Shown here in pieces: positions 7,376 to 62,727 of a stretch of 64,000 nt of DNA. The notes below the pieces were generated by a model. The model made no database searches. It was given only the letters and a program-made list of their open reading frames with translations, and was not told where the DNA came from. Where the stretch lies: contig NC_092351.1 in the NCBI RefSeq assembly GCF_963676685.1, positions 28,396,001 to 28,460,000 of the forward strand, written 5' to 3'. The DNA comes from Mytilus edulis (lineage: Eukaryota). The position numbers and the translations under genes are program-made. The first letter of the stretch is position 1. Each line of letters opens with the position of its first letter.

Positions 7376-7681
7376 TCGTGGCCTAAATATTTGAAATCCA
7401 AAGCTTATATAAAAGATGAAGAGCTATAATCCAAAAGGTTCAAAAAGCATAGCCAAATTCGTGAAAGGAATCATAGCTTTGCATAAGGGAGATACATTCC
7501 TTAATTTATAATAATTTCTATCATTTAGTAACAGAAAATTTTAATAACACAAAAAATCCGTATTTTCATGCCAGTACCGAAGTACTAGCTACTGGGCTGG
7601 TGATACCCTCGGGGACTAATAGTCCACCAGCAGAGGCATCGACCCAGTGGTAGTAATTAAATTAACGGTACTAATTTTCTT

Positions 7682-7725
7682 GCACCAGATGCGCATTTCG
7701 ACAATACATGTCTCTTCAGTGATGC
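7682..7725 (-). ncRNA. Minimal type I hammerhead ribozyme
   Basis: Identical to 6982-7025; the array ends at the 5' strand of its stem I. Confidence 0.9.
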
Positions 7726-8881
7726 TATAAATTATTACTTTATGATATGGTCCAAAAATCAACCAAATAAATCGATTCTGTTTGGCCCCAGATGACTTTT
7801 AAATTGTTTATATTATTAAAAAAAGCTCAAAATTATCTCCCTTTTGTGCAAAAATGCCATTTTTTGGCATTAGAATTAAAATATCTTTTTTAACTCATCG
7901 GTGACCTATATTTTTTTGTTATTGTTTTCAAATAAGCTGTACATAAACTAAATAATTGTAAAATTTAATCGACTTCTGTAATTACCTCTATTTCGTCTAT
8001 TAGTTCAACAGAAAAAAAAGAACATTAACAAAAATGTATGCTTCTTTCGGTTGCAGATTGTGAGCTGAAATGAACGGTGACCCCTTTTTTATTTCATTTT
8101 TCTATTAAGTATAAGATAAAGTTCATTTATAAAAAAAAATCCTATATTAAAAAAAAAATCATTTATACCCGCGAGCCCCCTAAAAAGAAAGGGGCTTTAT
8201 AATAATGGAATATAGAAATACTATTTCGCTATCAAAAGAGTTAGTTTGATTCAATTTCGTTAGAATAAGCTAACAAAATCAAACACTGATGTATTTTTTG
8301 CTTGCAAGTCAATTATTCAAAAACATTTGAATCAGTATCCATACAACTTTTAATTGGACTTTTAGTTGAGAAGGTTGCGCACATGTTCAACATCAGGGCC
8401 ATTCATAAAAAAGGAACTATAGAATTAAACTTATCAATTACAAAAGATAAACAAATTGAGACAATTATGATAATTCAAGGTAAAACAGAAGACCTCAGCA
8501 TGCTAATAAGATACCTTATTTTGTTCCACGAGTGATATCATAAATTACAGTGACCGACCTTATAAAAAAGAAGATGTGGTATGATTGCCAATGAGACAAC
8601 TGTTCACAAAAGACCAAAAAAAAACCATTAACAACTATAGGTCACCGTACGGCCTTCAACAATGAGCAAAGCCCATACTGCATAGTCAGCTATAAAAGGC
8701 CCCGATATGACAATGTAAAACAATTCAAACAAGAAAACCAACGGCCTTATTTATATAAAAAAAATGAATTTTTAGTTTATATTTGTGTAGAACGTTGATA
8801 TTTTTCGTGTGCATTATTTATATCTGTTCTTGGGTGTTAAATTATTATGAAGGAAATAGAGATTGAATACACAATCATAAA

Positions 8882-46300: not shown

Positions 46301-47421
46301 AACGAGTACAAGTGATTTAAATTCTTTATTTCATTCTTTAATCATTTGATATAGAACTAATTATATAACACACGGTCATATTACCTAATTAATGTACTCC
46401 CTGTCACTTATTTTAGGTTTTCATCATGCCTTTGTGTAATTGTATTAACCCAATGGAGTAAGAGATGGTAGACAAATTGAAAATCACGTTACCATTTTAA
46501 ACAGTATAATGTACTTGAAAGTATATACAAGGAATTACCACACCCTAGTGTATATGCATTTATCCCTTTGTAAAAGTTAGCAGTAATGAAATAAAACATA
46601 CATCGAAATTTGAGAGAAGTCTCTAAAGAAGTAGTCAATGACACATCGCCATCACGAATTGAAAAAATAACTGTCACGATGGAATAAAAAATAAATAGTA
46701 TGAAGATTACCTTCAATAGTTTCCATATCGAAGTTGCAAGGACAACACTCACCTTTGAAATTTAATATAGTAAGACTGAGTTCAGTTGGATTGAGTAGTA
46801 ACTATAAAAACACCAGACATATTAACAGAATTCTTTTTATAGATATCTGCAGGTATTATTCAAATCATCTATCTATAAAGAATAACAAAAATACCGGACT
46901 CAACTCAAAACGTCCATACAAACTGTCACAATCACGCGGTAGACATTGTCAACTAGCAAAATGAGCGAAAAACAACTGTCATATTCCTGATTTGGTTCGG
47001 GCATTTTCCGTAGAAAATGGTGGGTTAAACCTGGTTTTAGTGGCTCATCGGATATTTTTTAAGTCTTTATCACATTAAGTCATAAACTCATGCTATAACA
47101 GTTTAACAGAACATGTATGCGACTTACACCCCAAAAGAATGCTAATCGTTTGAGGAAATTATTTGTCCCGAAACAGACATTGAAACAACAATTTATAAAA
47201 TTACACTAGATTTATCAAAAGGCTTTTTTTTCATGCATCCGAAGCCTTTCGCTAGATTCACCTTATACAAAACGCCCAATGCCGAATATTTAACAATGTT
47301 GAAAATCCTTGGCTTCCAAATATTTGGCTTTGAGCATTTCGGACGATTTTTAGTCCGGATAAGCGCTCGGACACCTGAAATATATGGAGTGTTGGTTTTC
47401 TTTTTTTCTATGATTGTGTTG

Positions 47422-48831
47422 CACAGGCACTTGTCTCAGAATTTTTTTTTATATATACCTTAATATAACACAAGGTACTTAACTAAATTTTTTGAAAAAT
47501 GACACCCAGTCCAGAATTCCCGTTATTTTTCGATTTCTCGGTTGTCAAACCTACTTAAACTTAATATGCCGTAAATCTAAATTGATTTATCTACACAATG
47601 GTATATATGACACGACTATCATTGTTGTCGGGATCATTAGTAGCAGGTCTCAGAAGTCGGTCAACGGGATTTTTTTTGCATTCGTCTCAAACTTTGGTAA
47701 CACCCAGTCCGTATGTAATTTTATACTGGTTTCTCATTGGTCAATCGTCTGGCAAAAAATAAATGTGGGAAATTTTGGTCAATTTATAACTCTACATTAG
47801 TGTCGTTGTGTACACGTGTGTTTCATAACAAAATGAATGTCAAACAGCTTATAGCATTGAATGAGGTAAAAAATGGTCATAACCTTTTGCTTCTGGGGCA
47901 AAATGAAACGGGGAAGAGCCATTTGGTCTGTACTATAGAACAAGAACTAAAAAAAGGGGGGGGGGGAACGGTCGCAGTCACAGGAACAACGGGAGTGGCT
48001 TCCTTGAATATAGGTGGGATTACTGTCCATTCCTGCTCCGGTATAGCAGATGGTCATTTTTCAAATGACGAACTTTTACAAAAATTGACTATTGATGAAT
48101 ATTTTCGAAAATACAAGGTGTTCTGCAAGTTTAGGATTTTAAAAATTTCAATTTACCATTCAAATAAGGATTGACATATGTTGTTTTCCCTACTCAAAAT
48201 GATATCAAAATGTTATTAGAAATATACATACCATGAACAAATAGCATTATTAGCTAAATACATCTTTTCATGATACTTCAAAATATCTCGCTTTTCAAAC
48301 CTTTTGGAGTTATCTCAAAATCTTATGTAAAGTCCAGCGAGAGTCTGAATGATGTCAATAAAATGGGAAAATCTGAGTTCTAAAATTAGAAACTCTTGAC
48401 ACATTCGACAGACCTCAAAAAACACTTATTTGGGTTTGTTTCTCATGATCTGTAAAGAATTTACAATAAAGATAATAATTTATAGTCAGAGGGAAGCTGA
48501 CAGTTTTTATTTTAATAATTTTATAATAATTCAATCACTGCGGGCTGGGTGTTGCCAAAGTTTGAGACGAATGCAAAAAAAAAATCCCGTTGACCGACTT
48601 CTGAGACCTGCTACTAATGATCCCGACAACAATGATAGTCGTGTTATATACCATTGTGTAGATAAATCAATTTAGATTTACGGCATATTAAGTTTAAGTA
48701 GGTTTGACAACCGAGAAATCGAAAAATAACGGGAATTCTGGACTGGGTGTCATTTTTCAAAAAATTTAGTTAAGTCCCTTGTGTTATATTAAGGTATATA
48801 GGAAAAAAAAATTCTGAGACAAGTGCCTGTG
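47422..48831 (+). mobile_element. Non-autonomous DNA transposon with ~290-bp TIRs carrying a PIF1 helicase fragment
   Basis: TIRs 47422-47711 and 48541-48831 are near-identical and start CACAGGCACTTGTCTCAGA. Flanked by direct repeat TTGTGTTG (47414-47421 and 48832-48839). Confidence 0.92.
47833..48117 (+). pseudogene. PIF1-family (SF1B) helicase N-terminal fragment
   Basis: NLLLLGQNETGKS (degenerate Walker A, typically GxAGTGKS) and VAVTGTTGVASLNIGGITVHSCSGI (motifs Ia/Ib). No Walker B or later motifs. Confidence 0.85.
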
Positions 48832-51800
48832 TTGTGTTGGTAAGAAAATAGGAAATTTGATACTTATTTCGATTATTTCTTAATTTTAGGATTTTAATAC
48901 TTATAAACATAAAGCAGTGAGCGGTTTTTATTTTTATAAAAGTTTCTGCTTCACTTAGTTTAGAGGCAAATCTAATAGAAATAACTTTTTTGTCAGATTT
49001 TATAAACACAAAAAGTTGCTCGAAATGCAAAAATGTATGATATCCATTCGACAGAATTAAAAGCTACAGAGCAGAAATCTAAAACTATACTACAAGGAAA
49101 GGAACTTATCTGCATGTAATAAAGGTGGATTTGTTTCCATAACCTAACAACATGTGCATGTTTTTCCCCAACTAATAAGCAATACCATGCCAGTATAAAT
49201 GCACAAGCTATCCGGTATAGGAATAGCGACACAATCATATTGATATTTTCAATTCTTAATTTTCTTCTAGATATAATATAATTCAGTTTTACTTAGTCAC
49301 CCTCATTCAAGTAAGGGCTAATTTCTTGTTATTCGGTATTCCCGATGAAATATGATTATGGATTATACGAAGTGATTTGTTGTACAACAGATAATTGCAT
49401 TCTTGATTGTTAACTGCCGCCCACTCTTGAATATCAAATCATTGATATCAGTTGATACTCTATCCCTAACCATGAGTTAATAACAGCTATTGATCAATTT
49501 AGTTCAATTTATAATTGAAAAACTTTTTCACCAGTTTAGAAAGAAAAAAAGTGACTGATTTCATAATATCACAAGTTTTACTGTCGAGATATTGAAATCG
49601 GAATCACGCATTCGGAAGAGACTGTTTTCAATACACCCGTTTAAAAATGATTTTTTAATATAAAGTATCTTTGTAAATCTCCCCCAAAAATGCAAATTAT
49701 TGTCAATACACAAGAAAGTTATAACAACAGTTTTCATTTGTCAATTAAGACGCCCCGAGGAGCAGTACAATTACAATTTAATTTTAAAGTGTACAAATTA
49801 TTGTAGTGATTTTGTCATTGAACTTTTTGAAATTACGGTGCATGACAATGAAACTAAAACTATATAATGAAAGGAAGACAAAAAACACAGTGCTTGGATT
49901 TTGCCATGGTATTGTCATGCCATTTCAACTTATAAATTTTAAATGGTACCTTAATATCATTCTCCTCTTATTCAAAACGAAAAAGTAAATTAAACAGAAA
50001 GCACACTTTTCTAAAACTTTTAGCCTTCATAGATCCTGGCAACACCAGTTTTATGAAATATATTTTGGACAAAAATCTAGATAACTGTAAGCAATGTTGC
50101 AGGATCTCAACATTGAGGCTATCAATGCTTAATCTTATGGTCAAAACTATCTAAATTCCCAAATTAAATGTTATACACTTGATCTTGTTATAGCTGATGG
50201 TCCTATCACTGGGAACAACATGTCTTTGTGGAATATGTGGTTTTAAGGAGTTGACAACCTTAATCCAAAAATCTGTAAATAAATCTTGTCAGTCTACAAG
50301 TAAAATGATGTGTCAAAGAGTATTCAAGATAGTAACAAAACGTTAAAAAAAAATGTAGATAATTTCGAAAGGTTTATATCTATCAAGTGGAAAGCGGACC
50401 TCTGCTTTAACCTCAATGACGTACATATTACTGTCCGCGTAGATATAAAAAATATCCTACATATGACTTGGTAACTTTGTTTTAAGTGTTATGAAATATC
50501 TGTGACAGAGATGAATAAATGCAACAGTAGTATACCGGTGCTTAAAAGTCGATTGAATGAAAACATATCCGGGTTACAAACCAATACCGAGGGAAACACA
50601 CTAACTACAAGAGGAAAACAAAAGAACAACAGGAACACTATTAATTCGATAAAACTCGTATGTCATAGCATTGGTCCTTCCATCAATCTTTCGATTATGA
50701 TATCACCTATTGTGACAAATATAGATCTTGACTATAGATAACAACACGGTGGGTTATATTCGTAGAGCTGGTATTGTTTTCTTCTTCTTATGTTTTTCAT
50801 TTCCGATGTAGGTTATGTAAACTGTGGTTAATCTAGTGATTGGTCGTAGTGTTATTAGTAATTCTTCGGTTAAATCTTCGTGGTCTACTTTTTCCTTCGA
50901 TTTGATGCATCATGGCAAACAATCATAGCCTATCGATGTTTCTTTTCTCTTTGAATTTTGTTAAAATACCAAATAACAATTCATACCAAACTTTGTAGTG
51001 ACTACATTTGATTCGGACAGAAAGACATTTCCAGTATGAAGTACCGAATGCTCATGAGCCAAAGATGGGAATGAGTAAAACAGCCTTTTTTTCTGCATTG
51101 TTTATTCATACTACACAATACTAGTATATAAAAATTAAGTGTAATGTAAAATCGTTTTGTACCCTTTAAGTTGTTGGTTTTACATCTGTAAAAACATTAT
51201 TTAATACAACATTACTTCTAAGAGTGTATCACCTGAGAAATTTTAAATGTTTATGAAAGTTAAACGAATTTAAATCGTGTTCTTAAACTTCTCAGCTAAT
51301 AAACCAGGTATAATCCACCATTTTCTGAGTAAGGAAATGCAGGTACTAAGTTAAGAATATGAGATTTATTATCCATTCGTTTAATGAGTTTGATTGTCCC
51401 TCTTGTATCTTTCACCTCTTTTTAATGCATTTGAGAACGGACTTCCTGTGTTGATTTTTCGTTGAAGTTATAGTTATTTTTGCTATTTATCAACAAAGTG
51501 GTTGAAGCTAAACAATTATGTAACCCTTGTCTGCAATTTGATATATGTATGATTTGAATTCGAGTTGGTCAATTATATGAGTGTTCTGTCCTTATTTCCT
51601 TATTTTCTTATCCGTATCATTTTCCCGACTTCAAACATATCAATTACTAACTAAAGAACGTACTTTAGTCATATTTTATTATATCTGAAAGTTCTTTACA
51701 CAATGAATACAAATGTGTACATTATACTTACCTTTCATTCTTCATTTGTTATTGTAATTCATTTTAAAATAAAAAAAATATTTAAATGCACCAAATTGCT

Positions 51801-61714: not shown

Positions 61715-62336
61715 TTATTTCACCGATCGGAATCTCAAGCGGAATCGGGTTAGGTTAAGTCTTTGTGAAAAAGGCTTTTTTGATTTCTTGATGAAGTTGT
61801 CTATAGATGTTGGAGAGCTGCTTAAAGATGATTTATCTGAATTGCTCTGGGAATCAATACTCGACTCACTGCTACTCGATGATCCATGTTCTTTCCCATG
61901 ATAAAAATTGTGGTTTACATCACGTTCACAGAGTTCTTTATCAATGGTGCAACTGTTACGTTCTTCGCTTATTTCTTTTAAAGGCACACTTATTTTACTT
62001 CCACACAAACTTTCACAATAGTTGTGACTAGAAAAGACATTGTTTTTGTTACATGTATGTTGTCGTTGCTGATGATCACTGACGTGTTTTAAGCAGACAG
62101 ATGCTTTAGCGTGATTGTTATTCTGACCGTGTTTTAAACACCCCGATGAACTAGATTGAATGTTATTTTGACTGGAAGTATCACAGAGACATTGTTTGGT
62201 ATTTCTTTGAACATCAGAATGAAAGTAACACTTATTGGTTCCATGAAATCCTGGATGACCTGATGTATCCTTGACTATAACATAAAATAAGCCACCATCC
62301 TCCTGCACATACGGCATCCAATTGTCTTCGATATTG
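61715..62336 (-). CDS. Terminal coding exon of an uncharacterised Cys/His/Ser-rich protein (~236 aa if started at ATG 62816)
   Basis: Longest ORF in the window. Minus-strand acceptor ttttcttttctAG lies at 62337-62338, and its phase-2 junction joins cleanly to the upstream exon (AG|C = Ser). 206 codons run to the TAA. Confidence 0.75.
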
Positions 62337-62727
62337 CTAGAAAAGAAAAACAACGATTTTATTGACTTTTTTCCCAAATAATACGATTCATGTTCATGCT
62401 TTAGTCAAGTAACTATGTGAAATACATGTAAAAATTCAATGTTACAAGTGAGAAGTATTTAGCAATGAGGCCATATATAACATGCTATACGGAATGGGTT
62501 TTGTTTATTGTTGATGGTAGTTTGTTGCTCTAGAACTTTTTCAAAATGATTCCTTTGTCTCTTGTAGATATATAATTGTGTCATTGAAAATCATACCACA
62601 TTTGATTTCGGTTCAAAACAATCCTAATGATCTATTCTCCGCGTGATTCGTTTTCATTTATGAAATATACATCAAAGTATATTAAGATAATAAATTTAAC
62701 ATAAAATATGAAAAAAAGACAACATAC

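Follow-up and report, generated by a model that had tools for sequence, protein, structure and literature searches.

A P-superfamily transposon lineage of Mytilus edulis with its own PIF1 helicase and a predicted split transposase

The element in the window and its parent

The stretch of DNA analysed here (the window) comprises 64,000 nucleotides of the mussel Mytilus edulis (assembly GCF_963676685.1, contig NC_092351.1, positions 28,396,001 to 28,460,000 of the forward strand), and positions in it are counted from its first letter. It contains at 47422..48831 a non-autonomous DNA transposon of 1410 bp, a deletion derivative of an 8.2-kb element of what is called here family A. The termini read CACAGG...CCTGTG and belong to terminal inverted repeats (TIRs) of 290 bp at 47422..47711 on the plus strand and 291 bp at 48541..48831 on the minus strand, 284 bases of which match (284/290 of the left arm). 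An 8-bp target-site duplication (TSD), TTGTGTTG, flanks the element at 47414..47421 and 48832..48839. The 5′ end of a helicase gene occupies 47833..48116 on the plus strand, with about 94 codons that hold motifs I and Ia only. Its ATG at 47833 is located 121 bp inward of the left TIR, and the 113-amino acid (aa) frame, which runs on beyond the deletion junction to a stop at 48172-48174, gives a Pfam PIF1 match for residues 9-74 (E 8.7e-10) that passes the curated cut-off. The Walker A motif is altered to GQNETGKS, from the GQSGTGKS of the parents and most copies. No transposase is present inside the element (47422-48831). An earlier note on this sequence, made from the letters alone, had described near-perfect TIRs of about 290 bp starting with CACAGG, an ATG-initiated PIF1 N-terminus about 120 bp from the left one and the lack of a transposase, all of which the analysis confirmed.

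The parent is represented by L013, a family-A copy of 8242 bp with 290-bp TIRs, the TSD CCTAACCC and two genes facing each other, and the window copy corresponds to its bases 1-694 joined to 7525-8242. The junction, at 48116..48120 of the window, marks the loss of about 6.8 kb, including most of the gene encoding the helicase, a predicted P-type C-terminal domain (CTD), SAP and PHD, together with the entire transposase gene. The non-coding segment that follows (48120..48540, minus strand) matches L013 bases 7525-7953, a stretch which in the parent is found upstream of the transposase gene. Family-A gene 1 matches the Pfam families of the P-type RNase H and of the GTP-binding domain, and gene 2 matches PIF1, Pif1_2B and PHD; three further long copies (L026, L028 and L031) also carry two facing genes. 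The window element derives by internal deletion from this 8.2-kb P-type element, which encodes its own PIF1. The earlier note had offered precisely such a derivative of a larger cut-and-paste element as one of two possibilities, and the L013 match and the 13 copies with the same junction bear it out; the other, a Pack-type gene capture, finds no support, since the parent itself encodes the gene whose 5′ end the fragment represents and the host Pif1 is a separate multi-exon gene outside the clade of element helicases. The splitting of the transposase, with its predicted CTD on the helicase protein, was not noticed in that note. The copy in the window is a dead derivative of an ordinary kind, and its PIF1 fragment itself likely has no function. 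Between the two genes of L013 (4664-4723), and also in L026, L028 and L031, lies a 60-bp hairpin in which the termini of the element itself are copied, without a TSD.

Copies across the genome

In the 1.37-Gb M. edulis genome, the terminal 17-mer occurs 1499 times (752+747) and its reversed control 0+0 times, therefore the terminal repeats are not due to chance. The TIR search suggested in the earlier note, in which 40 of 956 candidates were scored, led to long copies with both a transposase and a PIF1 gene. Of the 13 copies of the family that are 0.7-8.4 kb long and have both ends, 10 show an exact 8-bp TSD, and a 3-bp duplication is compatible with the window copy only; the choice between 8 and 3 bp, which that note had left ambiguous, is thereby settled as 8 bp. 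Among 20 short paired copies, 11 have an exact 8-bp TSD and 8 have one with 1-2 mismatches, while one pair is probably two separate elements. Mini-elements make up many of the paired ends among the first 100 listed, and the 20 fetched pairs measure mostly 45-410 bp.

The window's deletion junction is common to 13 aligned copies at 11 independent sites, 3 of the copies representing one duplicated locus. Identity among the independent copies is 94-98%, and in several the PIF1 fragment carries frameshifts. From the shared junction, this level of identity and the frameshifts it follows that a single deletion event was amplified in an older burst and is now decaying. L016, L029 and L030 (C13, C2095 and C860; also C146, C903 and C1070) are one insertion found on a chromosome and five small contigs; the three copies compared are 100% identical, as expected of duplicated DNA or haplotigs. 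L015 and L019 are independent insertions with the same TSD, AGTCAGGG, and a similar context. The long TIR pairs L011, L012, L014 and L021 were rejected as autonomous copies, being short copies with foreign insertions. Open reading frames (ORFs) within or beside family-A copies in L012, L021 and L023 are presumably of reverse-transcriptase or long-terminal-repeat retroelement type. Elsewhere in the window, a 229-aa open frame with a serine-rich end (61715-62404, minus strand) is possibly a host exon.

The transposase core

A profile built from 71 transposase homologues finds the Drosophila P transposase (6p5a_A, E 1e-9) and otherwise only two weak RFX matches, while a search of the PDB with a single transposase sequence gave no match. 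The predicted core model (pLDDT 87, the predicted local distance difference test) was matched by Foldseek to 6pe2_A (E 3.5e-20, TM 0.78), the next family reaching E 3e-5. D395, D495, D535 and E738 are invariant in 71/71 core homologues, and the histidine three residues after D535 is conserved in at least 85%, giving a DxxH motif; a C/DxxH motif located after the second D and before E is described as a feature of the P superfamily (PMC9587614). The Pfam GTP-binding insertion PF21788 matches above its cut-off in L028 and more weakly in L032 and L048, and aligns to 6p5a 318-407. With its P-type DDE (aspartate, aspartate, glutamate) triad fold, DxxH motif, GTP-binding insertion, TIRs and 7-8-bp TSD, the element belongs to the P superfamily. 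Among the superfamilies considered in the earlier note, P thus stood, on the 8-bp TSD and the P-type transposase. CMC elements (EnSpm/Chapaev/Transib), with a TSD of 2-4 bp, were rejected since 3 bp fits only 1 of the 13 long copies, and hAT since Hermes reaches E 1e-4, against E 3.5e-20 for P, and no hAT Pfam family is matched.

The element differs from canonical P elements and THAP9, whose defining features include GTP-dependent cleavage with a 17-nt stagger, at both ends of its transposase. No THAP match was found in 5 long transposase ORFs; in family B, described below, the transposase ORF starts 39 nt inside the TIR and leaves no room for a THAP domain, and in family A one could lie on an upstream exon. 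At the N-terminus the profile detects a weak likeness to RFX winged helices (E 0.02). All 71 cores end 28-115 residues past the catalytic E (median 73). The Drosophila P protein extends about 220 residues past E531, with its CTD at 566-751 (PMC7776569, PMC10824691). Because these cores stop so soon after the catalytic E, the CTD is missing from the core chain, and none of 120 transposase homologues has a helical, CTD-like domain.

The second gene: a helicase joined to a predicted CTD

The second gene (ORF2; model pLDDT 76, 35 sequences) encodes a PIF1 core with motifs I-VI conserved. After this core come an acidic linker and a helical domain, then a SAP with weak support (Pfam E 0.018) and a PHD. 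The identity of the helical domain with the P CTD was proposed before the structural comparison was run. In that comparison, which covered 48,161 chains, ORF2 model residues 638-841 matched the Drosophila P CTD (6p5a_B) with Z 10.9 and 2.6 Å over 118/118 residues, a Z under about 13 being one at which, as the tool cautions, helical folds may share only a generic arrangement. Among the best 50 rows, 6p5a_B is the only one confined to 638-841. The domain also aligns with the free CTD-like proteins of other P-like families, presented below (hhalign 97.7%, E 1.7e-12). The model thus leads to the prediction that the helical domain of ORF2 is the P-transposase CTD. Its family comprises 1480 representatives at E up to 0.001; among the best 150 matches of the domain profile, the transposase core is absent (0/150), and a helicase is present in all those with more than 200 residues upstream (56/56). 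Foldseek with the whole helicase model returned only helicases among the matches listed, and the Atlas gave no usable match for the helical domain and, for the whole protein, only sub-0.9 viral PIF1 leads.

The earlier note had proposed a phylogeny of the fragment against host Pif1 and Helitron helicases. In a tree of 79 rows, in which the host Pif1 is partial and was taken from exons at C1:121.28-121.30 Mb, the 22 element helicases form a clade of their own (support 99), the 9 Helitron rows form another (100), and host Pif1, a separate multi-exon gene, stands apart. A tree joining the element and Helitron helicases was not rejected by the approximately unbiased test (p-AU 0.61), and the helicase may have come from an ancient Helitron, the host or a virus. 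A Helitron identity of the element itself was rejected, since ORF2 opens with the helicase and matches no Rep family, and since TSDs are present.

Intact copies and spread of the two-gene lineage

Family B has ten helicase matches in the genome. Eight of its copies, when aligned, show 99.95-100% identity; their ORFs, of 1084 and 796 aa, are intact and their 606-bp TIRs perfect. The TSD is 8 bp in 8/10 copies, the other two having none. One family-B copy is nested in another (C6:89380962-89397279; L148, L149), and five copies are clustered at C6:89.0-89.7 Mb, as in local hopping; inverted neighbouring copies were seen in two other families (C4:2.02-2.05 Mb; C1:42.98 Mb).

Protein searches of the genome revealed many further families with both genes adjacent. 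Elements of the lineage are 8-16 kb long, with TIRs of 290-606 bp and a TSD of 8 bp in families A and B and 7 bp in two nested mussel families. The transposase gene lies antisense within an ORF2 intron in several families, namely L053, L059, L063 and the two with 7-bp TSDs. For 17 elements a tree was built of each of the two genes, and all 7 starred clades occur in both (Mantel p 0.0005), showing that the transposase and helicase genes co-diverge. The helicase of a sister family has a 100% identical counterpart among proteins labelled Mytilus edulis; ORF2 homologues of full length bear the labels Mytilus, Saccostrea, Pinctada and Tegillarca, and core homologues additionally Mercenaria, Dreissena, Littorina and Ptychodera. 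In 80 metagenome loci, partly from related runs and not all independent, the partner domain lies on the opposite strand in 35, the helicase or helical domain in 25, and on the same strand in 0; in loci with at least 2 kb downstream, a helicase or CTD part was found on the opposite strand in 15/18. A transposase of the same lineage (P0167) is deposited under a bacterial metagenome-assembled genome label and is likely host DNA in the bin.

In contigs from four runs, each of a different study, family-B bases 1198 and 5541 (L035:1198-5541) are joined across a GT..AG intron whose donor sits in the Walker A codons and whose removal takes out the helicase ORF, the spliced form of ORF2 having only 32 residues. 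One of these runs is recorded as RNA and three are guessed to be RNA, and two large DNA-like runs gave 0 contigs with the junction. A second GT..AG intron (L035:5715-7997), antisense over the transposase gene, was found in one run, and both ORFs are also covered unspliced by the same contig sets. These data suggest splicing control of ORF2, as in P itself. In small-RNA run X21, piRNA-like (Piwi-interacting RNA) reads of about 30 nt, with 9 and 6 starts, fall on the helicase gene (L035:1883-1914).

Split P families without a helicase

An early stop, about 65-70 residues past the E, is likewise seen in the genome's other P-like cores (15 rows from 13/16 loci). In five distinct families, a separate gene on the opposite strand encodes a protein of 350-430 aa with a LxYIAGY...RGGL pattern and no helicase (L215:4932-5999, L217:3795-5093, L221:5682-6737, L224:5782-6834 and L229:4267-5484). 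Three of the five proteins match Pfam Tnp_P_element_C weakly (E 2e-4 to 0.05, below the Pfam cut-off), and one of these elements has 18-bp TIRs and a 7-bp TSD. Two of the CTD-like genes carry a C2H2 finger, and in L215 the gene lies on the far side of the core. No longer fused relative of a free CTD protein was found among 2776 candidates, which is weak evidence. In a tree without outgroup, a branch with support 100 separates the helicase-linked cores from the others. On the simplest reading of these sequences, the split would have come first and the helicase would then have been added once to the CTD chain. The helicase is probably an enhancer and not essential to the core process, since a CTD gene lacking a helicase suffices in other split families.

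A proposed tethered motor and its alternatives

The 8.2-kb P-type parent thus encodes a core without CTD and a PIF1 helicase fused to a predicted P CTD, and the two chains likely form one cut-and-paste machine with a tethered motor. On balance, the lineage is favoured to be part of an undescribed, old and still active P branch of molluscs and other marine animals with a split transposase, in which one lineage added PIF1, SAP and PHD to the CTD chain and throttles the motor by the splice donor in Walker A. The core chain would cut and join DNA, and the CTD, supplied in trans, would take the place it has in Drosophila, between the RNase H and GTP-binding domains. PIF1 motors move 5′-3′. The motor would load on the single-stranded gaps that remain after strand transfer, clear away the complex and assist in repairing the gaps, while SAP and PHD may help to bind DNA and chromatin. 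The Drosophila P CTD is described as gripping the transposon's end, which is single-stranded and looped, together with the target, and the disassembly and repair of P strand-transfer complexes is stated to be uninvestigated (PMC7776569). That the motor acts in disassembly of the strand-transfer complex and gap repair is proposed more tentatively than the machine itself and may well prove wrong.

Several observations weigh against this reading. All long family-A copies examined are broken by stops or frameshifts (4/4: L013, L026, L028 and L031), and raw RNA-seq run X24, of which 19% was read, gave no reads on either family-B ORF. The structural score of the helical domain lies in the cautionary range, and PDB sequence searches with the domain profile and the free-CTD profile did not find 6p5a_B. 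The free CTD-like proteins stay below the Pfam cut-off, no CTD gene was found in the fetched stretches of L223 and L228 (cores of the helicase-free type), L216 and L227, and the metagenome loci are in part not independent. Finally, the existence of helicase-free split families means that a helicase is not needed for split-P transposition generally.

With the same anatomy, the helicase could instead act at the donor site, in homology-directed resynthesis after excision, and so raise copy number. PIF1 aids long-tract repair synthesis, and at 8-16 kb the elements are long. The break left by P excision is described as repaired by homologous recombination or non-homologous end joining with involvement of a host helicase (PMC7776569). 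However, the CTD leaves together with the excised element and touches the target rather than the donor flanks, and the abundant internal deletions resemble aborted gap repair and do not indicate better repair; this alternative is the less likely one. Less probable still is a helicase protein that is an accessory passenger, serving replication timing, chromatin access or counter-silencing, with a helical domain that is unrelated to the P CTD or no longer one and a core that works alone. The grey-zone Z of 10.9, the accessory RecQ helicases of AcademH and KolobokH and the truncated cores without a CTD gene nearby fit such a passenger, but the match is full-length, of low root-mean-square deviation and to precisely the domain missing from the partner, and that domain has homologues in the free CTD-like genes that accompany other truncated cores. 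That a non-autonomous TIR element picked up a piece of host Pif1 or of a Helitron in a Pack-type capture, or that a Helitron sits inside a miniature inverted-repeat element, is barely credible even with abundant Helitrons in the genome and the joint helicase tree standing, since the parent's own gene supplies the fragment (which refutes a recent capture), starts at the helicase without a Rep domain and groups apart from both Helitron rows and host Pif1.

A natural element with a helicase on its predicted CTD makes the question of P complex disassembly and repair directly testable, with the near-identical intact family-B copies as reagents and the helicase-free split families as a natural control. 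The lineage also accounts for a large unannotated domain family (the 1480 representatives), shows that genes called "PIF1" in mussels and oysters belong in many cases to transposons and names the likely mobiliser of several hundred mini-elements. It is a real, active and apparently undescribed variant of the P superfamily. No description of a P element with PIF1 or of a split P transposase was found in the literature text available, Repbase and Dfam lying outside the comparison; that the helicase link is already noted there is conceivable if doubtful, and for the split less likely again. The helicase-bearing DDE elements named in that literature are AcademH and KolobokH (PMC10045372, PMC9587614, PMC10799480), and the available text of a bivalve survey (PMC10294476) contains no "helicase" and no P family among its curated elements.

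Comparison with known systems

Like the mussel element, maize MuDR has two genes, mudrA and mudrB, that read inward from two TIRs, the second of which helps integration; MuDR has a MULE (Mutator-like element) transposase and a 9-bp TSD, and MURB is neither a helicase nor a transposase domain. Galileo has long TIRs, and Galileo and 1360 each have a single transposase gene. Both belong to the P superfamily, with a 7-bp TSD as in the two nested mussel families, and no helicase is described for them in the text consulted (PMC3698922). AcademH and KolobokH are likewise DDE transposons with TIRs and a helicase, but theirs is RecQ of helicase superfamily 2, not PIF1 of superfamily 1, their transposases belong to other superfamilies, and no split transposase is reported in the sources available (PMC10045372, PMC9587614, PMC10799480). 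Helitron RepHel (7lcc; PMC8788227) also contains a PIF1-family helicase domain, whereas the mussel element lacks an HUH Rep, has TIRs and TSDs and carries a helicase of a separate clade.

The closest comparison is with Drosophila P and THAP9 (6P5A, 6PE2; PMC7776569), described as sharing the helix-turn-helix, the RNase H DDE domain with GTP-binding insertion, DxxH, the 8-bp TSD, CA...TG TIRs and an all-helical CTD. In contrast to them, the mussel core has a weakly matched RFX-like winged helix instead of THAP, and the predicted CTD resides on a second gene together with PIF1, SAP and PHD, in elements of 8-16 kb with TIRs of 290-606 bp.

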